This document shows, piece by piece, positions 3,024-52,052 of a DNA stretch of 64,000 nt (the stretch's first letter is position 1; each line of letters begins with the position of its first letter). The translations under genes and the position numbers were made by a program. Source of the DNA: a virus (Duplodnaviria; Caudoviricetes); the IMG/VR virus record IMGVR_UViG_3300038345_000118, positions 1-64,000 of that record, one strand, 5' to 3'. Below the pieces are notes generated by a model. The model saw only the letters and a program-made list of their open reading frames with translations, ran no database searches and was not told where the DNA came from.

Positions 3024-3397
3024 AAATTATCGTCTTTAATAGTTTTGATGATGACTTGTTCTACTTTCCCGTCGCCGAGTCCGTCATTCAGTTCGTCTAT
3101 CATACGTTTAACTCTTCCTTCTACTCTGGAGATGATTTTTTTTAGTTGTTCGGCATCCTCAAACTGCTCGTTTTCAATAAGCCGCTGAAAATCAATTTTC
3201 ATCTCGTTTACATCTCGCATGTTTTCCCTCACTTCGTTGGCGATGCTCAACATAAGCAACCTCTTCAGGACTTCTCGCAGCACTTCTTTATTCTTTTTAA
3301 GATGCCGCAAGTAAAAGAAAGCCATAATGGCCATGTAGGAAGTTGCCAAATAGGCGAGGATGGAAACGATAGTCAGTATGATTTGTAATGTTTGCAT
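3020..3397 (-). CDS. Membrane-anchored protein with UVR (UvrB/UvrC)-like motif
   Basis: N-terminal hydrophobic helix; QRLIENEQFEDAEQLKKII resembles the UVR motif. Confidence 0.5.
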   Translation of the reverse strand: MQTLQIILTIVSILAYLATSYMAIMAFFYLRHLKKNKEVLREVLKRLLMLSIANEVRENMRDVNEMKIDFQRLIENEQFEDAEQLKKIISRVEGRVKRMIDELNDGLGDGKVEQVIIKTIKDDNL

Positions 3398-4987: not shown

Positions 4988-7900
4988 TCTTATTATCTTT
5001 GCTTTCTGGATCGATTTCCGGAGCAGCCTGCACGTAGTCCTTATCGCCTTCGTGTGCCGGGTCGTAGAAATGGCGTGGCACCTGGCTTTTCCTGTAGAAG
5101 TAATAGGTGCGTGGCTGTTTCAATTTCTCCAGCACCCGAGGCAGCCGGTTGCCCTCCTTGTCGGTCTGTATGGTTCCGTCTGGATTCATGGGGTGCTGCC
5201 ATGCGGCGCAACGGCGAAACCCCTTCTCACGGTCAGTAGGTGTTATCAGTACCACTGGCGGGTTAACCACATAGATGCTGGTGCGTATATAGTCGGCCAA
5301 GTTGTCGCGGATGCGCTTGTAGGCTGCCTTGACGGTTTTCTCGCCGACGGTAATTCCGCAATAGTCGAGCAGCGAAATGGCGAGTTCACGCTGTGCGATA
5401 GGGGTGGCAAGGTGTCGTTTATCCAACAGATACCCTGCAATCCACCGTGTGAACTGTTCGTCCTTAGATGAAGCAAGCGCCTGTCTCAGCAGAGCCCTGC
5501 TATCCTTTGGCGGGTGGATGGTCTCTTCCGGGAATTGGAAAAAGAGCTGTACACATCCGAGCAACAGGTTACGAGCCTCGTTGAGCAGCGACGGACTGAG
5601 GTTGCGGGCTACCTCCTTCATCCCTTCCCGGCGGAAGTCATCGGCAGGAGTATGTGCGGGTCGTGATCCGTCCATGGAGCGTGGATGATACCAGTCGCTG
5701 ACAAGCACCTGATAGGTACGGCGCGAGGTGGAGTCGCTGCTAAGGTCGAGCTGTTCGTTGCTGGCAACGACGAATTTCGGCAAATCATCGCCCTCCAGGA
5801 CCACCGACGACCGGTACAGTCCGCGAGAGGTGATACTCAGTGTGTAGTTATAGAGCGTCTTTGGGGAAAATCCCTGCGGCAGCTCGTCGATGGCAATGAT
5901 GGTATGGAGACCGGGAATCACCTTGTCCAGCTCCTGCGTGAGTTTGACGTTACCGTCTTCGAGAGCCTTTCCGTCAATCCTAAGCACGCGGCGCATGAGC
6001 CCGAGCAATTCCAGAATGACCGTCTTTCCAGTTCCTCCACTTGCAAGGTCTTCGCGGCGCGTGCCGTTATCTGTTATGTGGAGGAACTGCTGGCGGTTGG
6101 CCGAACGGTGGCGAATAAGTGCGGATCCGAGTGCATGCAGCATAGCTATCATATACATATCCTGCACCTGCTTTTCCGTGACGGTAAGCTCTGCACCTCC
6201 CGCCTCTTTCTCCCAGAAAATACGAGACGTATTATACAGGAAGCGGAAATGCGGCGGCATCTGTTCCATTGGTTTGTCGAGTTTCAGCAAATAATGCCAG
6301 AGTGATGACCACGAATCCCATCGCATATTCTCCTGCGCCCGCTCATCAGGCGTCGATGATGCCAGCATGATTTCCTCGTGTTTAAGCAGTTCTGACTCAT
6401 ATAGCGGATTCACCACCACATGCCATGCCTGACGCTGCAGCGTGAAATTACCTTCCATGATGGCCTCACTGTTGGTCCATTGCTGCATCTGACCGTATGG
6501 CACAGTCTTGATGTCATCGGCTGAAACGCGCACGGCACAGTTGGAGAAGAAGAAATGGTCGAAGTCTTCTCCGAAACTCTTCTCGTCAAACTCCTTCTGT
6601 TCGATGGTCTCCAATGTTGACTGCTCCAACTTTGCTGAATAAATGGCCCGGCTTAAAGCCCCTTTCGGGTCGTTGTATTCTTTGTGAGCACGCAACCACT
6701 CGGCCATGATGTCGCGGGCCTGCGCTACCAGTTTGTTGTTACCTTTCTCCCCCGGGAAACATTCCGTAAAGGTGTTGTCGTTTCCAAGCAAGAAGAAACG
6801 CGAGAAAGACGATTTCCCCTGCTGCATGACACGTCGAACCATACCGCGAGCACGAAGAAATACCGGTGTATTGCGAAGGTCGAACTTATACCTTGCCCGG
6901 CCAGTGCCATCAGCATCCTTTCGCTCGCTCTCCCACTGCCAGAACTGGCAGGTAGGCGTATCAAAGAGTGCGTTATCGAACCATTCCACGGGATCGTCGT
7001 GCTGTACCTCGGCGGGCATGCGGCCCTCCACCTCTGAAAAGCGCGTCACGAAGTCGGTGACGTCCTTCAGTGGCTTCAGTTTATTCTGACTACTCTGATT
7101 ATTCCGATTATGCTGAATAATCTGCCCAAGCTCTTTCGGAAGCCGGAGCCAGCGCACCTGCGGGTTGTTGAGCGCGATGGCCTGACTGGCTGCCAGTCCG
7201 GTTGCATCCTCGTCATAGCAGACGTAGAGCCCTCCTTCGACCGTCACGCCCAACAGTTTCTTGATGAATCCGCGAAGCCAACGATTTGGGCGTGTGTTAC
7301 CACCTCGCTTGTCAAAGCCAGCCTGTTCGGAATGTAGCCACACCACATGAGCGTTACTATGCGACCACACGGCAATGGCATCCCGTGGACCGGAGCATAG
7401 TACCACCCGGCGAAAACGCACCTTACCCGTAGGCTTTCCGTCCTTGTCTTTCTCGGCTACATACGGATGGCGCTCGTCCTGTTCTGGTGTGGCCGTGCCG
7501 GGTGTGAGCACATCGGTCAGCGCACTGTCAGCGTACCACTGGTGATAGAGGTCTGAATCCTCCTTCACGCCCCACCACGTCCATTTGTTCGTGCCATAGA
7601 CATCCTTCGGCTCATACTTCTTGGTGCCCCACGGATAGCGGAACATGAAGATGGGATAGTTTTTCGTGGCCCGCACGATGCGCACCACTGCCCCGCCCTT
7701 CTTCGGCTCCACGCGCTGAATGAAGCGGCTGACGGGCTTCACGCCAAACAGCCTTTCCAATTCAGCACCCCATTCCGCTATCGTGTGTGTCTCGGCTTTC
7801 TGTGCCCCACGGTAAAAGTCTTTTCCCAAAGAGCAGCGGTAAAGTGCCTCGCCTGTGTCGGGATTGAACTGCGTAAGCATGTCGCCCACCTTTATTTCAG

Positions 7901-8453: not shown

Positions 8454-8734
8454 GGTTTCTGTAATAATTCGTTACGTAATGGTTCGAGGAGTGCGCGATA
8501 CAATACGCGCTTCTCTTCGGGGATATCTTCTTCTTCGATGCTTGCCAGCAGGAAATAAGACGTAGGAATGCCGAAGACCTCGCAGATCTTCCCGATGGTC
8601 TTTTTCGGCGGGTACGCCTTACCCGTCTCCAGGTTGCTGACAGCCGTAAGGCTCATGCCGCACCGATCAGCAAACTGTGTCTGTGTCATGCCATGCTCCT
8701 GCCGGAGCGTCTTAATTGCTTGTCCGATGTCCAT
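8450..8734 (-). CDS. XRE-family helix-turn-helix regulator
   Basis: IKTLRQEHGMTQTQFADRCGMSLTAVSNLETGK. Confidence 0.88.
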   Translation of the reverse strand: MDIGQAIKTLRQEHGMTQTQFADRCGMSLTAVSNLETGKAYPPKKTIGKICEVFGIPTSYFLLASIEEEDIPEEKRVLYRALLEPLRNELLQKP

Positions 8735-8745
8735 ATCTTTCTCTG

Positions 8746-11700
8746 TTACATTCTGTTTTGGATGGGGAAACGCTCTTTAAGTGCCGTAACCCGCTGATAT
8801 GTTCCGTAACGTCTCTTAATGTTCACCCACCAACGCCCTAGCTGCATTTCATCACTATGAGCGGTACTAGGCAGCCTGTTATGAGAATCAGCAAATGCCT
8901 CTATCTGATCTAAACGAAACTCCATATTGATTGATCGTTTGTTCGTCTGTGCGGCATACTTCCTATGCAACGCCCGAACCTCCGGTGTGTTAAGATATGA
9001 GCGGCGCAAGGTCTCATATTTTTGGTAGATGTCACCATCTTTCCTGTTTGGCAATCGATCATGCTCCAGCGACCAATCCCTTACAAGTGCATAACGTTGT
9101 TCAAATTTGAGAGGTCTATTCTCGTACCTGTCCCGAATGGCTTGCATAACGGGGTCTTCGCAAAGACGGTCACGGCGTGCCCTCCATTGTTTGTAAAGGT
9201 ACATTTCATCCGTTTTCTTTTCAGGTAGACGGCCATTCTTATCAACAAACCCGATAATAAGTCTCTTAACCTCATCGTCATGGCTAGCACGCATCTTCTC
9301 TCCATAAGACGGCCACGACGCTATCTCTTCAAGCAACGGCTTTACATCCGGGTGCTCCGGGTAGTTCTTCCTGATGTTGTAAAGGATAGCGTAAAGGTTG
9401 CGGACACTGTTATCAGTAGGGAGGCATTTGTTTTCTCTTATATACTCAGCTAGCGGCGCTATGTATTCCTTCATGTTGAATTCGTGCTTATCATACTTCT
9501 CATGCATCTCCTTAACCCTTGGATCATCCATATTCTCTCTCATAATTCTGTTCCAAAGATTATACATAGTGTGCTCATTCCTATGCGGCTTACTATTGTG
9601 CTCTCTGACATATTCCTGCAACTTGACAATTCCTTCATCAGCTGTCAGGAACTTCTTCCTTGTTTCCAAAAGCCTGGCTATGTCAGGGTCTTCATGTATG
9701 CTCTTACGTTCACGCATCCTCTTGTAGAGCGCAGCCTCTTCATTGGACCTGTTCTTCATCGGAAGACGGCCATGTTCATTGTAAAAATCGAGAATCGTCC
9801 GTTTAAGACTTTCGTCATCCTTGACAGTTCCGTACTTGTAGATGATTTCTTTAAGCTCTTTGTCATGCCTTCTCTTGTCAACAACACGCAACTGGCAAAA
9901 GTTGTTATAGTCACTCTCTTCACTCTTTATAGGCAATCTCCCGTTCTTCTCGACAAATTCCTTTAATCTTTCTAATCTCTCAAAAAAAGGTATTTTCTTC
10001 TTTTCATACTTTTCAAACAGCTCAGCAACCTGTGGATTACCAAGAAGCCTGTTGGTTACATGCCTACGAAGTTTATTCTCACTTTTAGGCGCAAAACGGT
10101 TATTGCGTGGAAGACGGCCATTCTTCTCGACAAAATCAAGAAATCTTTTAAGAAGTTCATCGTCGGTATCACGAAGACGTGTCCTGTATCTATCTAGCAA
10201 ATCCTGAAAACGCTTGTCAGGATTTCTCATGTGTTGAGTACAAAGGGCCACGTAATTTCTATAATCATCTGGTTCTGTAACCTTGACAGGCAGTCTTCCA
10301 TACTTGTCTGTAAATTCAACAAAACGTTTAAGTCTCGTTTCAAAGTCTTTTACCACACCGTACTTTGCCCTCAAGGCTATCACCTCCGGCCTGTCGCCGT
10401 AACATTGAATGAGAACGTGATAATGCCGAAACACATCCAAACCGTCACCACGGACGGGCGTGCGCCCGTTCTTCTCGCAAAAGTCTGTGACAATGGAAAC
10501 CCTCTCCTCATAGGAGGCGTAGACTATTTCTTGCGGGACCAGTTTTCTAATAGCATCTTTTATGCCTAACGTATAATCGTAAACCACAAAACCAAGTGGC
10601 TCGTATTCGCTCTCCTTCTCATCTTTCATGTGTTGATGCTCATACCAATCATAACCATCCCGTATTTGGTGGACAAGATTGGTCGTTGTGATATTATCAA
10701 CCATATCGAGAATAACGGGCTTATCCGTATTTGCAGCCGTCAAGCACCGCCCAATCTGCTGTAAATATATAATCTTCGACGATGTGGTGCGAAGGAGTAT
10801 GACAGCATTAATACGGGGGATATGCACACCTTCATTAAGCATATTGACGCTAAGCATGATTTTTATGCCTTCTTCATAGTCATCGTTTTCATAACCGTCC
10901 ATTTGCTCTTTCAACTCCTTGTCTGCCATATACCCGTGAACAGTATAGATATCGGCTATTGTGAATCCAGCACTTACAAACCAACTTTTTACGGTTTTCT
11001 CCATATCCTTCAAATGCTCCACATTCCCGCAGAACACTATGACTCGGCGAGCTTTTTCATCAATATGTTTTTGGATAATGGCAGGCATACCTTGTGAGCG
11101 TTCCCAGTCAAGACGAAGATTGTTTACACGTGTCAACCGCTCCTTCTTTTCTTTAATGTCAAGACTACGGCTTTTACTGATACGCCTTTCTATATCATCA
11201 ACAACCTTGTCAAACTCAAACAGCCCTGTCACAAAACGGGGGGTGGCAAGGATATTCCTGTCCCAAGCATCCTTCAATGACATATAGCTGGCAATGTTTC
11301 CGCCAAACAGTTCGTCTGCCATATCACGGTTGTCATCAAGAAAGCGTATAGGTGTAGCCGTTGTTCCCAAAACCTTTGCTTGCGGATTGACTTTAAGTAA
11401 GCGGTCAACGGCATCACCCCATTCGGGTGCTCCGGCACGGTGAAACTCATCGAGGCAAATGAGGTCATAATTCGTTTGCGGGTTTTCGGTAAACATCAGC
11501 AGAGAATATGTCATATATTCCACCTTGCCGTCTTTCTGCCTGTCACGCCACTCCAATACACTATGCACCTGGTTAAGCACAAACGTATTAGGCCCGAGTA
11601 TCAGCACGTTCTTATAGCTTTCAGATACCGCCGCCATCAGGTACGACTTACCCGTACCCGTTGGGTGTACTACACAGGTGCGATCGGCTGCCTCGAAAGC

Positions 11701-11754
11701 CTTCACGACTTTCTGATACGCTGCTTTATTATGCGGTAATAATTGTGTTCTCAT
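8746..11754 (-). CDS. Superfamily II DEAD/DEAH helicase with about 10 C-terminal helicase-associated-like repeats
   Basis: HPTGTGKS, LDEFHR, TATP, NEGVHIP and QQIGR motifs; repeated F...(N/H)GRLP units. Confidence 0.85.
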   Translation of the reverse strand: MRTQLLPHNKAAYQKVVKAFEAADRTCVVHPTGTGKSYLMAAVSESYKNVLILGPNTFVLNQVHSVLEWRDRQKDGKVEYMTYSLLMFTENPQTNYDLICLDEFHRAGAPEWGDAVDRLLKVNPQAKVLGTTATPIRFLDDNRDMADELFGGNIASYMSLKDAWDRNILATPRFVTGLFEFDKVVDDIERRISKSRSLDIKEKKERLTRVNNLRLDWERSQGMPAIIQKHIDEKARRVIVFCGNVEHLKDMEKTVKSWFVSAGFTIADIYTVHGYMADKELKEQMDGYENDDYEEGIKIMLSVNMLNEGVHIPRINAVILLRTTSSKIIYLQQIGRCLTAANTDKPVILDMVDNITTTNLVHQIRDGYDWYEHQHMKDEKESEYEPLGFVVYDYTLGIKDAIRKLVPQEIVYASYEERVSIVTDFCEKNGRTPVRGDGLDVFRHYHVLIQCYGDRPEVIALRAKYGVVKDFETRLKRFVEFTDKYGRLPVKVTEPDDYRNYVALCTQHMRNPDKRFQDLLDRYRTRLRDTDDELLKRFLDFVEKNGRLPRNNRFAPKSENKLRRHVTNRLLGNPQVAELFEKYEKKKIPFFERLERLKEFVEKNGRLPIKSEESDYNNFCQLRVVDKRRHDKELKEIIYKYGTVKDDESLKRTILDFYNEHGRLPMKNRSNEEAALYKRMRERKSIHEDPDIARLLETRKKFLTADEGIVKLQEYVREHNSKPHRNEHTMYNLWNRIMRENMDDPRVKEMHEKYDKHEFNMKEYIAPLAEYIRENKCLPTDNSVRNLYAILYNIRKNYPEHPDVKPLLEEIASWPSYGEKMRASHDDEVKRLIIGFVDKNGRLPEKKTDEMYLYKQWRARRDRLCEDPVMQAIRDRYENRPLKFEQRYALVRDWSLEHDRLPNRKDGDIYQKYETLRRSYLNTPEVRALHRKYAAQTNKRSINMEFRLDQIEAFADSHNRLPSTAHSDEMQLGRWWVNIKRRYGTYQRVTALKERFPIQNRM

Positions 11755-12683
11755 TTGCTATTTTTTTTAGCTTCACGCACCGCATCGTTACGCATCTCTG
11801 TCAGTTCCCTGACGGCTTTCTTCGCAAAACCCTTAGTGGCAAATATCTCATCAGAGTAGTCATAAACTGCCTTGATGGTGGCATCGAAAGGCAGATCCGT
11901 TGACGTCCACAGTTCCTCCAGCTGTTCCACACCGAGCGCGACGTTGCGTTCTTCGGCTTCGTCGAGACTATAGGCATCCGTCTCAGGAGCCAGTGCGACG
12001 AGAGCCCGCTGCCATGCGGCAGAGATGCGTTCAAGTGAAAACGGAGCGTAGATCTGCAAGACTTGGCTCTCTGAAAGCAGTCCTTCGCATGCCTCATGTA
12101 CGATGCACATCGTCCGCTCAAAGATATTGACGGCAAGTTTCAGGACGGTCTCACCCACCAATCCCCACGCCACAAGGTCGGCGCATGGCACGCCGTGAGC
12201 CTGCATCGACAGGCGGAACTTGTTCCACAACGAGCCAATAAGCGGCTGGCTCTTCTGATAGACCAGCGCCCCCGTAGCCTCCCAGAACTCAAAATACTGC
12301 GCATCGGTCACGACACCGTATTTCCGTCGGGCTTCTGCCGGCATGTCCTGAAACCTGAAAAACTTAACGATGCCAGGCGCAGGTTGAATCAGGTTCGTGC
12401 GATAACGCTTATATTCGTCGAGCGCACGGGCAAAGTCGCGCTTTACCTGATGCTTGTATTTAGGGTGTGGAGAGCATGGGCGTGCCATATACTCGTCCTT
12501 TGGCCTCACGTCGGCAATCTTGTTCAGGCTGTCCATCATCACGACGAGTGCTGCATTGTTGGCGGCACCGGTTATCATCTTAACAAAACCGGCGCACTGC
12601 GCCATAAGCAGTTCTATCTCCTCAATGGTCATGCCCTTCGGATTACGGGCAAGGGCGAGATAATTTATGTTTTTTGGTGTCAT
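11751..12683 (-). CDS. Hypothetical protein
   Basis: 310-aa ORF whose stop overlaps the helicase start. Confidence 0.65.
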   Translation of the reverse strand: MTPKNINYLALARNPKGMTIEEIELLMAQCAGFVKMITGAANNAALVVMMDSLNKIADVRPKDEYMARPCSPHPKYKHQVKRDFARALDEYKRYRTNLIQPAPGIVKFFRFQDMPAEARRKYGVVTDAQYFEFWEATGALVYQKSQPLIGSLWNKFRLSMQAHGVPCADLVAWGLVGETVLKLAVNIFERTMCIVHEACEGLLSESQVLQIYAPFSLERISAAWQRALVALAPETDAYSLDEAEERNVALGVEQLEELWTSTDLPFDATIKAVYDYSDEIFATKGFAKKAVRELTEMRNDAVREAKKNSK

Positions 12684-12699
12684 AATCTATTTATTTTTG

Positions 12700-12785
12700 C
12701 CCAGGAGGCCGAAATCGAATCGGCGCTCAGTGGAATGTTACATCCCGTTGCTCCTGTGGGTCTCACTTACGGGCTTTCTCCTGGG
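12700..12785 (-). ncRNA. tRNA-like structured element (acceptor-like stem plus T-arm)
   Basis: CCCAGGAG/CTCCTGGG 8-bp stem stacked on GCCGA-TTCGATT-TCGGC; no canonical D or anticodon arm. Confidence 0.4.
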
Positions 12786-12859
12786 GGTGCCCGTCTTTCC
12801 GGGCTGTCATGCAAGGACCTTAGTCTCGGGCATTGCGAGAACATCTATGTTGGCGACGC

Positions 12860-13306
12860 TTATTGCTTATTCAGTTGTCCCTGTAGCTTAGCGATTGTCT
12901 CGCTATAAGCAGCGACTTGCTTCTGGTGTTCATCGACAAGCTGTTGACGGGACAGTTTCAGCTGTGAGAGCTGTTCATCCTTTTCTTTCAGCCGCTGGCG
13001 AAGATTCTCCACGAGTGTCTGATAGCCAGTCACCTGTTTGTCGATTTCAGCCTTCTGTTCCTTAAACTTCCAGTACATATCTTCGAGTTGGGCGACCTTC
13101 TCAGTCGTTTTCTCGTACTCCTCCCGTACCCGGTCAAGTTCCATCTGGTACGGATTGTTGCCAAACAAGGCAATAAATAAGTTTTTGAAATAACGCTTCA
13201 TTGTTTTGTCTTTTATGGATTTTTCCACCATTTTTGGAAGGGACTTTTCAAAAATTGTTGTAACTTTGTTGCAAAGATACAATAATTTCGGAAATCGACA
13301 AAACAA
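12860..13306 (-). CDS. Coiled-coil hypothetical protein (likely start at MKRYF near 13201)
   Basis: Heptad-rich C-terminus; first gene of the leftward operon. Confidence 0.6.
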   Translation of the reverse strand: MFCRFPKLLYLCNKVTTIFEKSLPKMVEKSIKDKTMKRYFKNLFIALFGNNPYQMELDRVREEYEKTTEKVAQLEDMYWKFKEQKAEIDKQVTGYQTLVENLRQRLKEKDEQLSQLKLSRQQLVDEHQKQVAAYSETIAKLQGQLNKQ

Positions 13307-13346
13307 ATTCAGAAGTTTTTATTCGGATTTTATTATATTAACTTTG
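13272..13346. promoter_or_regulatory. Divergent Bacteroidota sigma-A promoters (candidate genetic switch)
   Basis: TATCTTTG on minus (13272-13279) and TAACTTTG on plus (13339-13346) match the TAnnTTTG -7 element. Confidence 0.6.
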
Positions 13347-13360
13347 TAAAATGAAGTGCT

Positions 13361-14071
13361 ATGAATCAATACAGACTCAACACCAAACTTATCAGCAGCC
13401 TAAGTACCGTGCTATTCACAACGGCAGCAGAGATTATGCAAGCCTCTGGCATTGCAAGCACCACATGGTATGCCATTATGCAGAAACCTGCAGCCATCAC
13501 GATCCAGCAACTCATTGCCATCTCCAACGGCATGCACATCCCTGTAAGCCGGTTTTTCTCAACCGGTAAAACCGACCTGATAGGCCACCGCGACGATTAC
13601 GTGACCGACCCATACCTGCCTTGTTACTACGACGCAGATGCGTTACAGGAACTTGTCAGCAGCCGTCAGGAAACCACATGGCAACGAGCCGCCGATGCAA
13701 CGGGTGTCAGTCGCGACAACCTGCGAAAATCCTTGTTGGGTGTAAGACGCACGCCTGTGACGCGATTTCTCACGACCTGCGACGCTTTTCGAATAGACCC
13801 TTTCGAGATTCTGATTGACCCCAATCCTAAATCGAAGAAAGAGCATGCAAAACCGTCGAAAGCAAGTCTTGAAACCACACACGCGGAAATACACCAGTTG
13901 CAGCAAGACATGAAGGCGCTATCAGAAAGCGTCATGGAGCTCAGCAAAAAGTACGAAGAACTTCTTTCTGCTCACGACGCGCTGCTACGCCAGATCAACA
14001 TGAACATCCATAACTTCACAGAAGGCAGTTTAAACTTTGTTTCCGGTTCGTTGGAGCAGAAAGAAAAGTGA
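13361..14071 (+). CDS. Repressor-like protein with tandem HTH-type domains and C-terminal coiled coil
   Basis: EIMQASGIASTTWY and RAADATGVSRDNLRK HTH-like segments; lone plus-strand gene divergent from the replication operon. Confidence 0.55.
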   Translation: MNQYRLNTKLISSLSTVLFTTAAEIMQASGIASTTWYAIMQKPAAITIQQLIAISNGMHIPVSRFFSTGKTDLIGHRDDYVTDPYLPCYYDADALQELVSSRQETTWQRAADATGVSRDNLRKSLLGVRRTPVTRFLTTCDAFRIDPFEILIDPNPKSKKEHAKPSKASLETTHAEIHQLQQDMKALSESVMELSKKYEELLSAHDALLRQINMNIHNFTEGSLNFVSGSLEQKEK

Positions 14072-38608: not shown

Positions 38609-40006
38609 TTACGAGCGTGTGCCTACCTTCTTCCCGTTATCAATTTCCCTATACCTTATATTGTTCCTTATCAGGTCGGAACGCATAGGGCTGACTTCGG
38701 GCATTGAACCGGTATTGCCTATCCCGGTTAAATTTCTTAGATTGATAGCAGCATTCAAGTCACGATCAATTACGTTGCCACATTCAGGGCAGCGATAAAT
38801 TCGCTGATTAAATGTCATGCGTTGTTCGACATGTCCACACTGACAACACCGACGAGTGCTTGGAAAATTAATTGGGGCCTTTATAATTTTTCTACCAAGC
38901 AGTTCGCCGAGAGTCTCCAGCCGATGACGTATCTCATAGAGTCCTACATCCGCAAGGTGGGCATTCAGTTTCTTTTTGCCTTCCTTTCGTTCTACGGATT
39001 TTGCCATCTTTTTGATGGATAGCGTCTCAATGGAAATATACTGATAGTTAGCAAGGATTACCCCACAAAGACGATTACGTAAATCCTCACGCCTATTGCG
39101 TATGCGTGTGCGAAGCCTCCATAACTGTTGTTTCAACCGCAAAAAATTCTTTCCAGGTCTGTTGCCAGATTTCTTCTGCTTCGCACAACTGCAATGATTC
39201 ATACGCTCCTGCAGTTTGTTCTCATGTATCAGTTGCCGCTCCCAGAAACGGAGGTTCTCTATCATCAAGCCATCAGAGGTGACGGCCAGTTCTTTTATCC
39301 CGAGGTCTATGCCAATGGCAGCGGTGGGCGACTGGGCATATCGAGGATGAACACGTATAAATTCTTCTTCAGTGATCTCAACGAGAAAACAAGCGTAGAA
39401 ACGCTCGTTCTTTTGACGGATGGTAACGCTGACAGGTCTGCCTTCATAGCGAAGTGGCCGAGTCATTCGGACACAGCCGAGTTTTGGTAACAACAGGTAA
39501 GGCCGTTTATGGCAGGGCTTGCTACTGGGATCGTCTGCATAAGTCGGTACAAGAGACCCATCACGGCGCTTGTGCATTTTCATTTTCACGCGGTGGTCGA
39601 GAATCTTTGCACCGCCCTCATTATTCGTTGGGAAGTATTCAGTGTAACTTCCATGATTGTATGACTTATTCTTGGGTTTTGGAAATCCGCTCACCTCGTC
39701 GTTACCACCTTGTTTGATTTTTTCATGGCCTTTAAAGAAATTATCAAAGGCTCTTTGAAGGTCGTCAAAAGCATAGCAGGTGGCAGCGGACGAGATTCGT
39801 TTGAGGAACGGCCATTGTCCTGCTTTCTTCTCTTTATTAAACTGAGTGCGTATGTCACGGCAGTTTGTCCTCTGTCCGCTATCACGCAGACGTATCCACT
39901 CGCACAAGCCGTAGTTGTAGGCCAGCCGATGAGCGCCGAAGCACTGGCGGAAGTAAGTTTTCTGCTTATTGTTGGGTCGTATCTCTATGGTCTGTCGTAC
40001 AAACAT
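38609..40006 (-). mobile_element. tnpB: TnpB RNA-guided endonuclease (IS200/IS605 family), no tnpA nearby
   Basis: N-terminal HTH (IEIRPNNKQK...RLAYNYGL), RuvC-I IGIDLG, RuvC-II ISIETL, CCQC/CPEC zinc finger, RuvC-III DRDLNAAINL. Confidence 0.92.
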
Positions 40007-40100: not shown

Positions 40101-40559
40101 TTAATCCCATGAGTGTTCTTTAAGGGTTTCGTCGTCGGTGGGACAACATCTGATGTCGGGGTCGTTGGTGTAGTCGATGTCGTCGTCCTCGTCGAGTTCC
40201 AGTTGGTTAAGTTCCGAGCGGGCGATGTCGAGGATGGTGGACTTGACGAGGGTTTCACCGTGCTGCATGTAGAGGACGGGGGTGTGGCGGTAGTCGGGCG
40301 AGAGCATGTTTTTCAGGGCCCATGTCTCGGCGGCTAAGGTGTAGTCGCGCTTCAGTTTGGTGAACATCACTTCAGGCATCATCTGCGCCAGTTCGCGTCG
40401 CACGGTGTCGATGTGCTTGAAGTCGAAATAGATGACTTGCGCCTGCACCTGGCCGCCGTCGCTTGTCACCTCCAGTCCGTAGAGAAACCGCCCGAAGTAT
40501 TCCTTCAGCATCTTCTTGTAGTCACGGCCAAGTGACTGAGGGGTTTTGATTCTTTTCAT
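40101..40559 (-). CDS. Hypothetical protein with acidic tail, predicted target of the antisense module
   Basis: ATG lies 1 nt downstream of the antisense target site TGTCAAAATTCATAGCG. Confidence 0.65.
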   Translation of the reverse strand: MKRIKTPQSLGRDYKKMLKEYFGRFLYGLEVTSDGGQVQAQVIYFDFKHIDTVRRELAQMMPEVMFTKLKRDYTLAAETWALKNMLSPDYRHTPVLYMQHGETLVKSTILDIARSELNQLELDEDDDIDYTNDPDIRCCPTDDETLKEHSWD

Positions 40560-40584
40560 ACGCTATGAATTTTGACAAACAAAA

Positions 40585-40659
40585 ACTGCACTACGGGCTG
40601 TCAAGGTTCATAGCGGTGAGACCTTTGGGGCTGTTATCCAGTACCCCACCCGGTGCAGT
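40585..40659 (-). ncRNA. C4/CI-like antisense RNA (75 nt)
   Basis: ACTGCAC/GTGCAGT closing stem and two internal hairpins, with CCGCTATGAA in a loop and TTGACA at a stem end and bulge, complementary to flanking sites at 40561-40577 and 40743-40762. Confidence 0.75.
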
Positions 40660-40765
40660 CGTATTTTTTGAGGATAATCCTCGTTCATTTTCGGGCACAA
40701 AAAATGCCGCTTGTTCGGCGGCTCTTTTTCTTCTTCGTGCCACCGCTATGAATTTTTTGACATGG

Positions 40766-40773
40766 CAAAGATA
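40766..40773 (-). promoter_or_regulatory. Sigma-A -7 element driving the antisense module
   Basis: TATCTTTG on minus strand directly upstream of the first target site. Confidence 0.6.
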
Positions 40774-40987
40774 GGATGATTTTCTGAAACTTCCAAATTT
40801 TTCCGCAACTTTTTTTTGAGCGAAATCAGGTTATAACAAAGTTATAAAAAAAATTTGATATACCAATTTGGCATATCAAAAATATGTAAATGGATGTTCT
40901 ATCTGTTTTGAAGTCGCAATTTGCGACTTCAAGTTATTAACTTCCTCATTTTCAAAATGATTGAATTTGACATCACAATTTGTGATA

Positions 40988-41290
40988 TCAAAGAGCCGGT
41001 CGCATGATGGAGAGTCCAAGCGCGTTGATGATGCTAAGGAAGAAGCCTGCGGATGGTTCCACTCTTCCTGTCTCGATGCGCGAGATGTAGGACTTCTTGC
41101 TGCCTACGCGGTCGGCAAGTTCCTGCTGCGTGATGCCGTCGTGCTTGCGGGCATCACGAATGATAGTGCCAACATAGTAGGCGTATGCCTCGCGGCGAAA
41201 ATGGTCGCGCTGCGGAGTGCCAGGCTGACCGACGAGTGAGTTCATCACTTCGTCGAAACTGTGTACATCAGGATTGATCTTTGCTTGCAT
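40988..41290 (-). CDS. HigA-like XRE antitoxin
   Basis: IRDARKHDGITQQELADRVGSKKSYISRIETG; downstream of a RelE-like toxin. Confidence 0.85.
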   Translation of the reverse strand: MQAKINPDVHSFDEVMNSLVGQPGTPQRDHFRREAYAYYVGTIIRDARKHDGITQQELADRVGSKKSYISRIETGRVEPSAGFFLSIINALGLSIMRPAL

Positions 41291-41603
41291 AGTATTCTTT
41301 CTTTAATTTGACTGCTTTATTGATTTCGGATGTGGGTGTCTTCTGTGTCTTCTTCTGAAATCCGTTGAATAGCATGACGATGTTGTTGCCATCGAAGATG
41401 AAGAATGCGCGATAGATGTTACCCATGTGGAAGGCCCTGAGTTCAAAGACACCATCTCGTATGTGCTTGACAAACTGCTGGTTCAGGCGCTGCTGTGTCT
41501 TCAGCATGTCTAACACATAGAGAACTTTCCTCTGTGCTCCTTTGTCGAGCGACTGAAAGAAGTCAAGGAAGTAGTGCTTGTAGTACAGTATCTTTCGCTC
41601 CAC
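41268..41603 (-). CDS. RelE/HigB-like type II toxin (Gp49-like), probable GTG start at 41603
   Basis: KHIRDGVFELRAFHMGNIYRAFFIFDGNNIVMLFNGFQKKTQKTP; toxin-first gene order. Confidence 0.85.
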   Translation of the reverse strand: MERKILYYKHYFLDFFQSLDKGAQRKVLYVLDMLKTQQRLNQQFVKHIRDGVFELRAFHMGNIYRAFFIFDGNNIVMLFNGFQKKTQKTPTSEINKAVKLKKEYYASKDQS

Positions 41604-41749
41604 GGTGCAAAGATAGCAAATGTTTTCAAATATGAAAACTTTTTGTGGATTTTTTTGCAAAATAAAATTCAGCCCGCCGGACACGGGGCTGGGCGGGCTG
41701 AACGCAGGCGGTCTGGCTCCCTCCCTTCGGGAGGGGCAGGGGTGGGTTT

Positions 41750-47523: not shown

Positions 47524-48363
47524 TTATTTCCTCATGTCTTTGCCTTTAAATTCAATGGCGCGGACGATGGAGCGCAGGCGGCTAATGACCTCGTTGCCGT
47601 AGCGTTCCTGTATAGATAGCGGGTAACGCGGGTCATTGACGGGTGTGGTGGAGAGATTAGTGGTGATGATGAGCAGGTTTCCGTTCTGTTCCGCAGCGTC
47701 GCACAACTGGTAGAACGAGTCGTCTGGATTTCCGTAGTACTTTGCAGGTTCGCGTCCGAGACCGTCGATGATGACGATGCGCTCTTTCAGCAGGTCGTTG
47801 ACCTTTGCTCTCATCTCAGTGGCCTTAACCGCAGGCACTTTTCGTCCGAGAATAACCGGCAGTATCTTCTCGCAGATAACTGTCTTTCCAAGTCCGCTAA
47901 TGCCAACGCAGAGCAGCCCCCTACCCCGGTTGTCGGTCAGCCATTCTGCCACCTCGTCGTAAGCTGGAATCCACTGTACTTTGTCGCCCAGGAAATGTTG
48001 AAGTCCTTTCTTCAACCGCTCATGCGCGTTTGGTATAATTATATGCGGCCGTTGCAGATATGGGCCAGACGTTTCGTTTTGCAGAAAGTCAACGGGTGCT
48101 GACGCTTTGCTCTCCGCAATGCGATAGTTGAGTCTGACACCGGGTTTGAAACTGGAGTCAAGAGCCCATTTCATCATGGGCACGTGAATCTCCTCGATGT
48201 ATTCAAAGACATAGCGGCTGGGCAGGCACAACACTACCGCGTTCTGCTCTTCGTCGTAGCGCTCGCAAATGATATCCTTGAACCATACATCAAAGACGTG
48301 CTGGCTCACCTTCAGCCGGATGAGTTGCTGGCATTGGTTCCAGAGTTGCTGCATATTTTCCAT
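47524..48363 (-). CDS. DnaA N-terminal-domain / DnaC-IstB-like ATPase fusion
   Basis: LWNQCQQLIRLKVSQHVFDVWFKDI...LPSRYVFEYIEE resembles DnaA domain I; VGISGLGKT Walker A, IIIDGLGRE and IITTNL motifs. Confidence 0.75.
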   Translation of the reverse strand: MENMQQLWNQCQQLIRLKVSQHVFDVWFKDIICERYDEEQNAVVLCLPSRYVFEYIEEIHVPMMKWALDSSFKPGVRLNYRIAESKASAPVDFLQNETSGPYLQRPHIIIPNAHERLKKGLQHFLGDKVQWIPAYDEVAEWLTDNRGRGLLCVGISGLGKTVICEKILPVILGRKVPAVKATEMRAKVNDLLKERIVIIDGLGREPAKYYGNPDDSFYQLCDAAEQNGNLLIITTNLSTTPVNDPRYPLSIQERYGNEVISRLRSIVRAIEFKGKDMRK

Positions 48364-48368
48364 GATGA

Positions 48369-49394
48369 CTATTTCTTATCGTTTCCAAAGAGTTCCATTC
48401 CGCTGTCTGTCGGCTGCTGCACTACGGGTTCAGGCTCTACGGATAGCGTTTTATAAGTTGTCTTGTTTTGCCGGTTCCGTTGTTCTATTGCCTTCTGAGT
48501 TTCAAGAAGGCCCTGCTTGATGTTACGCCCAAGATCGGTGAGGTGTATATGAAAGGCTATAGACTCCGGCGTGCCGCGTTTCTTTCCCGGCGGGTATATA
48601 AACTCGTATTCGAATGTACAGTCGATGCGGTCGGCGGCTTCGAGGATTTCCCGTCGAGCCGGTTCCAGCACACGCTTCTTGAAGTCGTTGATGTCACGGT
48701 ATTTGTCAACGGTAGCCTTCTTAGTCTCCTTGTCGTAAGTCGTCAGGAGTATCTTCCGTAATTTCTCGTAGCTGATGACCCATGTGCCGAGTTGCTTGTT
48801 AGCGTTGATGAGCAGGTAAATACGTCCGGCATAGTTGCTGGAGAAGAGGAAGATAGCATCTTTCAGGTAGCGATGGTAAGGCGTAATGCGGAATAGGTCC
48901 TTGGCCGTCGTCTCCGTCATGTGCAAATAGATATTCTGGCGACGCTTTCCCGGCACGTCCTTGTCTATATCGACGACTGGAAACGCCACGGTGTATCTCA
49001 TTTTCCCCTCCACCTCCTTTTCATAGACGATGGACTGCATGGACTTAGCCGCCGTATCCACGTCGTTGTAGTGCTGCGGTTCTATGCCAAGCTCAGAATA
49101 AGCCACCTTGAAGGTAAGATAGCGTGAGCGGTCATCGGGCGAGATAGGCTTGTAGTCTTCGCTGTCAAAAAGGTCTCCGATAAGTCCCTCCTTTGACTTT
49201 CTTTCGAGCGCCTTCTTGATTTTACCCTGCAGCTTCTCCATGATGGTAGTCTGGATGCGTGTCTGCATCATCGACATTTCACCGTTTAGATAAGTGAATG
49301 TGATGGGCTGCGTGATCATCTTTCGCTGTTCAGCGGGAACGCTGCTGATAATTTCCTGCTTCAGCTGTTCAGCCTTACGTGACTTTCTTGCCAT
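48369..49394 (-). CDS. Plasmid replication initiator (Rep_3 / RepA-like), probable start MARKS at 49394
   Basis: FSSNYAGRIYLLI...ISYEKLRKIL...YRDINDFKKRVLEPARREI is Rep_3-like; adjacent to an iteron array. Confidence 0.8.
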   Translation of the reverse strand: MARKSRKAEQLKQEIISSVPAEQRKMITQPITFTYLNGEMSMMQTRIQTTIMEKLQGKIKKALERKSKEGLIGDLFDSEDYKPISPDDRSRYLTFKVAYSELGIEPQHYNDVDTAAKSMQSIVYEKEVEGKMRYTVAFPVVDIDKDVPGKRRQNIYLHMTETTAKDLFRITPYHRYLKDAIFLFSSNYAGRIYLLINANKQLGTWVISYEKLRKILLTTYDKETKKATVDKYRDINDFKKRVLEPARREILEAADRIDCTFEYEFIYPPGKKRGTPESIAFHIHLTDLGRNIKQGLLETQKAIEQRNRQNKTTYKTLSVEPEPVVQQPTDSGMELFGNDKK

Positions 49395-49560
49395 AATGTG
49401 TATCTTTAAAATATTACCATTGACATGGGACCGTTGTAGCCAAATCCCTGCATTCGGTGGCAAAGTTACAAATTTGTCCGAGAAGTTCCAAGCGTTTTCC
49501 CCTTTATTTTCTGATGTTTAGAAAACCTTTAACTTTTGTTAGTATTTTAAAAATCGGTAA

Positions 49561-50993: not shown

Positions 50994-51153
50994 TTATTGA
51001 ATTATTGTTATATTGCTATATTGCTTTATCGAATTATTGCAATAACGTTATATTGTAATATTGTTGTATCGTGATATCGTTATAACGTAATAATGTAATA
51101 TCGAAATATTGTAATATAGTTATACTGCAATATTGTATTATTGCAATAATGTT
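50994..51153. repeat. parS-like array 2: twenty contiguous 8-bp units (consensus WTATTGYW)
   Basis: Unbroken 8-bp register from 50994 to 51153 between parA and its partner gene. Confidence 0.85.
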
Positions 51154-52052
51154 TTAGTGCGCTTAATGATTTCATTGGCGAGAAGTGTGAACTCTTCGCG
51201 TGGTATGTCGGCGCGTGGGGTGGAGTAGACGCTTGTGAACTCGCGCTGGCTTTTGCTGACGGCTTCGCGTTCTGAGATGCTGACAGGCAGTATTTCCTTG
51301 CCGTAACGTGATTTGAGTTGTTCTTCTGCCTCGCGCTGTCCTTTGATATATGCCTTACGCCGGGTTATCAGGAATCCGAGGTTAGTCAGTTCATCGTTTT
51401 CACTCTCGCGTATTTCCTGGATGTATGCCAGGTAGTTCTGCAGTCCGTTGAGTGCGAATCCTTCGAGGTTGATGGGAATCAGCACGGCATTGACGGCGAT
51501 CAGGATGTTGTCGATAAGGACTTGCGGTCCGACGGGCGAGTCAATCAGGATGAAGTCGAAATCCGTCATCCAGTCGGTGATGCCTTCGCCGGTATGATCA
51601 TCCGGTGCTTTCTGCAAGGCCCGGGTTAGTTTCATGGCCGGGTTGCGCATGGTGGGAAGCTGCTGGTCCACCTTGTTCATAATCGAGGTGGACGGGCAGT
51701 AGTAGAGTCCCGACTCGCTCCGGTAGACGGGGATGGGTGCATCCTCACACAGTACGTGGTAGATGGTGGGGTAGTGCTGCAGTTCGAGGTCTGGGTTCCA
51801 GTCGGTACAGCTGGAGAGGTTAGCTTGCCGGTCCATGTCGATGACCATGACGCGGTAGCCTTGCAAGTGCAGGGCCATTGCCAGATTGAGTGTGGTCGTG
51901 GTTTTACCCACGCCACCTTTGTAGTTGCCGATGCCGATGACGGCACGCAGCTGTGTCTTGCGTTTTTTTACCATAATGTTGTAGCTTTTATTTGAAATTG
52001 TATTTGCTCCTATATCAGGATGTTGTAGCGAATCCTTGGAGGAACGGTGCAA
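51138..52052 (-). CDS. parA: ParA-family partition ATPase (likely start MVKKR near 51974)
   Basis: Deviant Walker A NYKGGVGKTTT, VMVIDMDRQANL, FDFILIDSP, VLIPI. Confidence 0.93.
   Translation of the reverse strand: MHRSSKDSLQHPDIGANTISNKSYNIMVKKRKTQLRAVIGIGNYKGGVGKTTTTLNLAMALHLQGYRVMVIDMDRQANLSSCTDWNPDLELQHYPTIYHVLCEDAPIPVYRSESGLYYCPSTSIMNKVDQQLPTMRNPAMKLTRALQKAPDDHTGEGITDWMTDFDFILIDSPVGPQVLIDNILIAVNAVLIPINLEGFALNGLQNYLAYIQEIRESENDELTNLGFLITRRKAYIKGQREAEEQLKSRYGKEILPVSISEREAVSKSQREFTSVYSTPRADIPREEFTLLANEIIKRTKTLLQ

Follow-up and report, generated by a model that had tools for sequence, protein, structure and literature searches.

On the minus strand of the 64,000-nt stretch of DNA analyzed here (hereafter, the window), a c4-2-type antisense RNA switch probably heads a leftward operon of a temperate, plasmid-like tailed phage of a Prevotella-type host in the Bacteroidota; we assign this reading a probability of about 75%. 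Two segments exposed in the RNA (a' and b') are each complementary to one upstream and one downstream site in the same predicted transcript, and this target-RNA-target layout is established by sequence co-variation among relatives. The element is not a new kind of RNA, as it falls in an existing Rfam family.

A first-pass annotation of the window had described a promoter, a first target, a GCCGC/GCGGC-T6 hairpin, a structured RNA, and a second target ahead of an ATG. When we read the sequence, all of these elements were present on the minus strand where that annotation had placed them; for the structured RNA, the covariance model spans 40582–40660 (79 nt) versus the 40585–40659 (75 nt) given earlier. 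The -7 box (TATCTTTG, of the form TAnnTTTG) lies at 40766–40773, and a TTTG resembling the -33 element of a Bacteroidota-type promoter lies 20 nt upstream of it at 40794–40797. The Bacteroidota promoter consensus is TTTG-N19-21-TAnnTTTG, which the predicted elements fit in both sequence and spacing. Of 21 loci examined, 18 have a T[AT]nnTTTG box immediately before target 1.

Target 1 (a1b1) had been placed at 40743–40762; a1 and b1 together cover 40741–40762. The a1 segment (TGTCAA; 40757–40762) is the complement of a' and forms the predicted 5' end of the transcript, and four A residues separate it from b1 (TTCATAGCGGTG; 40741–40752), which is complementary to the b' loop over 12 nt without a mismatch. 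Directly after b1 comes a leader hairpin that resembles an intrinsic terminator (40694–40741), with a GCCGC/GCGGC top stem (40706–40722), a GGCAC/GUGCC base helix, and a T6 run (40699–40704). Between this terminator and the c4-2 RNA lies a small spacer hairpin (GAGGATTATCCTC; 40670–40682); among relatives with a leader terminator, about half have a hairpin predicted there. Within the c4-2 RNA, b' (CACCGCUAUGAA; 40607–40618) is the loop of the second internal hairpin, and a' (UUGACA; 40599–40604) is the single-stranded junction that follows this hairpin. Target 2 (TGTCAA-AA-TTCATAGCG; 40561–40577) consists of a2 (40572–40577) and b2 (40561–40569), and b2 is followed by a single T and then by the start codon (ATG; 40557–40559) of the putative controlled gene, ORF152 (40101–40559), which encodes a conserved hypothetical protein of 152 aa whose C-terminal part is acidic. 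ORF152 is followed on the same strand by a gene for TnpB, an RNA-guided nuclease of the IS605 OrfB type (38609–40006), and the two may be co-transcribed. Reading the sequence from the terminator to the c4-2 RNA (40699 to 40660), we found no TAnnTTTG box, so both the RNA and the ORF would depend on read-through from a single promoter; the absence of a separate c4-2 promoter fits processing of the RNA from a longer transcript.

In a scan of 4227 Rfam families, c4-2 (RF02944, clan CL00128) was the sole above-threshold match in the whole window, aligning over model positions 1–79 (E = 4e-8 in a local scan and 1e-6 for the whole window) with the same four-helix layout as the Rfam model. Its score of 45.7 bits compares with a gathering score of 41 and with 58–66 bits for other Bacteroidales copies; the window RNA is a divergent, near-threshold member, about 5 bits above the cut-off. 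The C4 model (RF01695; P1/P7/P4 type), which we take to belong to clan CL00128 as c4-2 does, was unmatched throughout the 86-kb record at E ≤ 10. Because RF02944 was passed and RF01695 was unmatched, the RNA is a member of c4-2 and not of C4.

The locus had earlier been claimed as a C4/CI-type module of a Bacteroidota phage whose sequences differ from those of the P1 and P4 RNAs, with an Infernal search using the Rfam C4 models proposed as a check. That check gave a divided answer (c4-2 matched, C4 did not), and the C4/CI-type reading is supported for the mechanism class and the clan, including by loop/target co-variation in 22 relatives, whereas formal membership is in c4-2. The claimed difference in sequence agrees with the unmatched RF01695 model and with the lack of sequence similarity to P1 c4. 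Assignment to a Bacteroidota phage also stands, given relatives in Prevotella/Prevotellaceae genomes and genes for a tape-measure protein and a head protease in the record. Kinship to the P1 and P4 RNAs rests on the Rfam clan assignment and the common layout; the authors of the c4-2 family describe it as a likely distant homolog of the earlier-described c4 RNA (Weinberg et al. 2017, PMC5737381). We found no experimental study of c4-2 in the literature searched, where it is so far a purely computational family.

Other searches of the region returned little. The isrK model (RF01394) had no match at 40694–40762, and its best matches in the record (11.5 and 7.6 bits) lie elsewhere. The one other Rfam match on the leader, OrzO-P (21.9 bits versus a cut-off of 60), was treated as chance. 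Using blastn, we found no match to the 1.25-kb region among 50,697 GenBank phages. The 221-nt region folds better than 200 of 200 shuffles (z = -3.3).

The motif TGTCAA-N2-4-TTCATAGCG has exactly three matches in the 64-kb window, all within 200 nt: two on the minus strand, at 40561–40577 and 40744–40762, and one on the plus strand, at 40599–40615, where it is the complement of the RNA loops. The same search in 100 dinucleotide-preserving shuffles gave 0 matches. The calculated duplex energy of the c4-2 RNA is -26.3 kcal/mol with the b1 target and -20.8 kcal/mol with a2b2; because the RNA is GC-rich, energies of shuffled-target duplexes discriminate poorly, and we relied instead on the exact-motif and permutation tests.

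Using a degenerate pattern derived from the conserved hairpin, we identified 32 IMG/VR loci with 20 distinct RNAs besides the window's own. The RNAalifold consensus of 21 sequences contains 20 pairs, 12 of which have compensatory double changes, a count in which part of hairpin P3 is uninformative, as it was fixed by the search pattern. The co-variation test used 22 distinct relatives, comprising loci from IMG/VR phages and Prevotella genomes. Across these loci, the sequence of the b' loop varies, and each variant is accompanied by an exact complement at a fixed upstream offset and by another just before the start codon, with own-locus matches of 7–12 nt upstream and 6–10 nt downstream. Summed over the 22 loci, the longest own-locus matches reach 199 nt upstream and 169 nt downstream, versus permutation means of 120 and 109, and 0 of 10,000 permutations reached the observed sums. 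The a' segment likewise occurs as UUGACA, UGAACA, UAGACA, UUGUCA, or UUAGCA, each mirrored in a1 and a2 of its own locus. Where present, a2b2 ends 0–5 nt before the ATG, and in the subgroup with antirepressors it covers the ATG and first codons; judging from this position, RNA bound at a2b2 would occupy the 30S footprint.

The motif-triplet shuffles and the co-variation permutations already contradict a reading in which the complementarities are incidental and the structured RNA is, for example, a processing or terminator element of an upstream toxin-antitoxin-like operon. The RNA does end in a T-rich run, and an upstream HigB-like/HTH pair ends 330 nt away; however, a motif triplet with zero chance expectation, locus-specific co-variation in 22 loci, a promoter of its own that is conserved in relatives, and upstream genes that differ between loci together make this reading scarcely credible.

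The co-variation of loops and targets would be equally expected of a purely cis-acting 5' leader, and it cannot tell cis from trans. In such a leader, a1b1, a'b', and a2b2 would alternate in intramolecular pairings that set translation or termination; the RNA would not diffuse and would confer no immunity. Folded as a whole, the 221-nt leader has a minimum-energy structure in which a1b1 is paired in cis with the RNA loops, and the isrK-orf45 leader of Gifsy-1 is reported to switch between two intramolecular structures (PMC4825925). We nevertheless consider a leader acting solely in cis to be unlikely: the RNA has a compact fold that is closed by a 13-bp terminal stack and whose conservation does not depend on the flanking sequence, as fits a stable excised molecule; trans action is established for the homologous RNAs of P1 and P4; and one relative (L019) has two modules with orthogonal loops, which fits specificity in trans. 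The two L019 modules, at 3142–3219 (minus strand) and 8600–8677 (plus strand), have different a' and b' sequences, and each precedes an ORF152-family paralog (the two paralogs are 84% identical). On sequence, this arrangement fits the expectation for orthogonal specificities.

The hairpin and T-run directly after b1 are kept in 15 relatives. When these leaders were folded as truncated transcripts that end with the last loop nucleotide and so lack the 3' arm, an alternative hairpin formed in 15 of 15, with energies from -8.7 to -13.9 kcal/mol; in this early hairpin, the 3' end of b1 and an invariant GGC pair with the 5' arm of the terminator. The variable bases of the early hairpin co-vary (GC with GC, CG with CG, and GG with CC), and the leader sequences reveal a further co-varying variant, in a shifted register, in L017. 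Native leaders are more stable than chimeric ones, a result matched or exceeded in 49 of 10,000 permutations. Of the 7 nucleotides that make up the 5' side of the early hairpin in the window, 5 belong to b1, so c4-2 bound to b1 would exclude this hairpin and favor the terminator. For leaders folded at full length, the terminator is invariably the structure of lowest energy; an anti-terminator step would thus depend on kinetics. The pairing of the b1 3' end with the terminator 5' arm suggests that the leader may act by attenuation.

We propose that transcription from the Bacteroidota-type promoter would yield a1b1 first, followed by the terminator hairpin, the 79-nt c4-2 RNA, a2b2, and ORF152. 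By analogy with P1 c4, P4 CI, and IsrK/STnc1160 of Gifsy-1, c4-2 would be cut out of read-through transcripts; by analogy with the same systems, the excised RNA would act in trans on a2b2 and block ribosome binding. Such a block would, if the analogy holds, silence the operon in the lysogen and in superinfecting phages with the same loop sequence. Based on folding and co-variation, the b1 3' end may also pair with the terminator 5' arm in the nascent leader and delay the terminator, and binding of c4-2 to b1 would remove this competitor, so that transcription would stop before c4-2 and the ORF. The outcome would be a self-limiting repression in two layers, attenuation and a translational block. 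Some relatives lack one or both of these components: a2b2 is missing in L006, L016, and L062, and the leader terminator is missing in L006, L016, L031, and L059–L061, all of which keep a1b1 and the RNA. Neither layer of repression is therefore universal.

The position of the terminator directly after a1b1, kept in 15 loci, would also suit a different main regulator, namely, the short leader transcript itself (a1b1 plus terminator, ~60 nt). This transcript should be the most abundant product, and it could, as an IsrK-like sRNA or sponge, titrate c4-2 and so activate the operon, with c4-2 mainly as its target. [quoted passage not shown] The isrK model does not match the leader of the window, however, and relatives that lack the leader terminator retain a1b1 together with the RNA, which leads us to regard a leader sRNA as a very improbable main regulator. 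Such an activity would be compatible with repression by c4-2, and both may coexist.

Some c4-2 variants have a1b1 ~25 nt before the RNA with no intervening terminator, and the family includes at least two leader architectures. Compared with the Rfam c4-2 family, the window RNA passes the threshold over the full model and comes from the same host group (Bacteroidales), and its subgroup differs by the extra leader terminator.

A C4 antisense RNA proper is released from a longer transcript by RNase P and confers immunity by acting in trans. The targets of C4-type RNAs are an antirepressor in P1 and the replication operon in P4; in P4, termination takes place downstream of cI and controls the replication genes. 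The window RNA resembles the ~77-nt c4 RNA of P1 and P7 in exposing a' and b', and the presentation of b' as a hairpin loop and of a' as a single-stranded junction is the same as in P1 c4. The two targets are also placed alike: a1b1 precedes the RNA, and a2b2 follows it and lies at the first ORF's ribosome-binding site. Further likenesses to P1 are the plasmid-prophage context and, in four relatives, an antirepressor downstream. In contrast to P1 and P7, the window RNA has neither sequence similarity nor an RF01695 match, a terminator lies between a1b1 and the RNA, the first ORF encodes the 152-aa protein instead of icd, and the window operon has no ant gene. The immI operon of P1/P7 is reported to be c4-icd-ant, with c4 as an antisense RNA (Citron and Schuster 1990, cited in PMC8201110).

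The CI RNA of P4 pairs with seqA (upstream) and seqC (downstream), which leads to premature termination (PMC4825925). The present locus is alike in its target-RNA-target order, in the origin of the RNA from the leader of the operon that it would control, and in the proposed premature termination, whereas its candidate terminator lies upstream of the RNA, with a mechanism that we infer. The closest published layout is that of isrK-STnc1160-orf45-anrP in Gifsy-1, where the IsrK leader stops at a Rho-independent terminator with partial read-through, ~80-nt STnc1160 is processed from the read-through transcript, and an antirepressor gene follows downstream; its authors raised the possibility of CI-like control of the IsrK terminator (PMC4825925). 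Both loci comprise a promoter, a terminator-ended leader, an ~80-nt RNA complementary to the leader, and a translationally controlled ORF (putatively so in the window). Unlike in the window, the processed RNA of Gifsy-1 overlaps orf45, the leader sRNA is an activator, and the downstream gene is an antirepressor. With IsrK/SeqA-type elements in general, the window shares a target-bearing leader with an intrinsic-terminator-like element before a C4-like RNA, although RF01394 is unmatched.

We used the same degenerate pattern to search species genomes; this analysis identified 23 loci, of which 20 were scanned with Rfam. Only two of the scanned loci (L037 and L055), both in uncultured Prevotella/Prevotellaceae MAGs, scored above the c4-2 threshold. 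L045, from a Prevotella sp., fell below it, and the remaining pattern loci were taken as chance matches. Scanning with the Rfam model detected c4-2 in 5 of 151 genomes drawn from the family to which one of these MAGs (Prevotellaceae) belongs and in 0 of 14 control genomes.

The record itself is an 86-kb IMG/VR virus contig with an estimated completeness of 72%. Among its products are a tape-measure protein of 2324 aa and a head maturation protease (L067:692–7666 and 11676–13535), together with a Rep3-like initiator, a DnaA_N/ATPase protein, and ParA (window 47524–49463 and 51138–52052, minus strand). Further genes encode ArdC and a MutS_I protein, and methyltransferase and helicase genes are also present. 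This gene content suggests a phage-plasmid of a Prevotella-type host. P1, which uses c4, lives as a tailed temperate phage that replicates and partitions like a plasmid, and the predicted combination of a Rep3-like initiator and ParA with a tape-measure protein and a head protease fits a P1-like lifestyle.

ORF152 has homologs in 175 clusters (90% identity), all hypothetical and one of them from a Bacteroidaceae MAG. Its AF2 model has a pLDDT of 84.5. The protein belongs to no Pfam or PHROG family, and Foldseek identified nothing in the PDB at E ≤ 0.001; the best Z in a wide VIA-align search was 5.5, to generic alpha/beta domains and with no convincing fold match, and a protein atlas returned scores ≤0.78, to unnamed viral clusters only. 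These results bear out the statement in the first-pass annotation that the controlled gene is not a recognizable antirepressor. Its suggestion that the gene may be a new lysis-lysogeny effector gained no support, as no family or fold was matched and homologs occur in early-gene trains with no gap for c4-2. One homolog with 70% identity lies in a long early-gene train, where it abuts an HNH-like gene and is itself followed by a gene for a GIY-YIG repeat protein; there is no space for a c4-2 RNA in front of this homolog, so the ORF152 protein is not tied to c4-2. The 448-aa gene after the ORF152 homolog in L063 is not a TnpB; it carries the repeats of the GIY-YIG proteins of L016 and L026.

The TnpB downstream of ORF152 has the Pfam domains HTH_OrfB_IS605, OrfB_IS605, and Cas12f1-like_TNB. 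It aligns to solved TnpB structures, and the three RuvC acidic motifs (D/E/D) and the zinc finger are present; the protein appears intact in sequence. The genes that follow c4-2 in the window are ORF152 and TnpB, neither an antirepressor nor a replication operon. Among the relatives, the genes after c4-2 vary. Antirepressors with Bro-N/KilAC (Bro-N/ANT) or only KilAC domains come directly after c4-2 in 4 loci (L003, L005, L018, and L007), members of the ORF152 family are among the first genes in 4 loci, GIY-YIG repeat proteins are encoded by the first ORF in 2 loci (L016 and L026), and an HNH or HNH-NUMOD endonuclease is the second gene in 4 loci.

A TnpB gene is located on the same strand ~0.4–1.3 kb downstream of c4-2 in 4 of the ~13 loci with enough downstream sequence (window 38609–40006, minus; L008:1174–2577, plus; L019:609–2486, minus; and L032:1486–2601, plus). 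These downstream TnpBs are mutually 24–30% identical and so do not represent one recent IS. In all fetched loci, 4 of 5 TnpB matches sit downstream of c4-2, a position that may reflect old synteny or a shared insertion hot spot. Genes of the HNH, HNH_3+NUMOD, or GIY-YIG type were found at L008:719–1159, L032:1072–1470, L017:5123–6019, and L028:2336–3106, and further genes of the homing-endonuclease type are the first ORFs of L016 and L026 and the genes at L063:5573–6004 and 6473–7819. Homing-endonuclease-type genes thus recur as the first or second gene after c4-2 or flank ORF152 homologs, and the slot that follows the RNA resembles a place where selfish nucleases land.

A broader reading, which we regard as rather doubtful, is that the two-layer c4-2 switch guards a hyper-variable cassette slot in Prevotella-type phage-plasmids, a slot occupied by an antirepressor or by selfish nucleases (HNH, GIY-YIG, or an intact-looking TnpB) together with the 152-aa protein. 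If this were true, the guarded slot would place an RNA-guided nuclease and a new effector under the control of prophage immunity.

For c4-2 itself, the locus and its relatives offer a concrete, testable picture in which two targets are defined and a candidate attenuator is identified. The switch would extend P1-type RNA immunity to phages of the Bacteroidota, a dominant group in the gut and rumen with poorly understood temperate phages and phage-plasmids. From phage to phage the loop-target code varies, and it would set which phages exclude each other, and orthogonal loop-target pairs could serve as programmable RNA repressors for Bacteroidota genetics. The added value is modest, consisting of explicit targets, a specificity code, a candidate attenuator, and variable cargo; as an instance of a catalogued family, the locus is ordinary.

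A Gp49 (HigB/RelE-like) gene and an HTH_3 (XRE) gene overlap each other a short distance before the c4-2 promoter (window 40988–41684, minus strand). Pairs homologous to Gp49/HTH_3 also occur near c4-2 in L019 and, in divergent orientation and adjoining c4-2, in L005. The pair could be a toxin-antitoxin pair or a repressor pair of the immunity region. Between the stop codon of the HTH gene and the c4-2 promoter are three palindromes of the form X-AAATT-X' (window 40846–40990, minus strand), located at ~40975–40995, ~40906–40930, and ~40854–40880, the last followed by T8. The palindrome at 40854–40880 with its T8 run looks like a terminator, and the other two could be operators.
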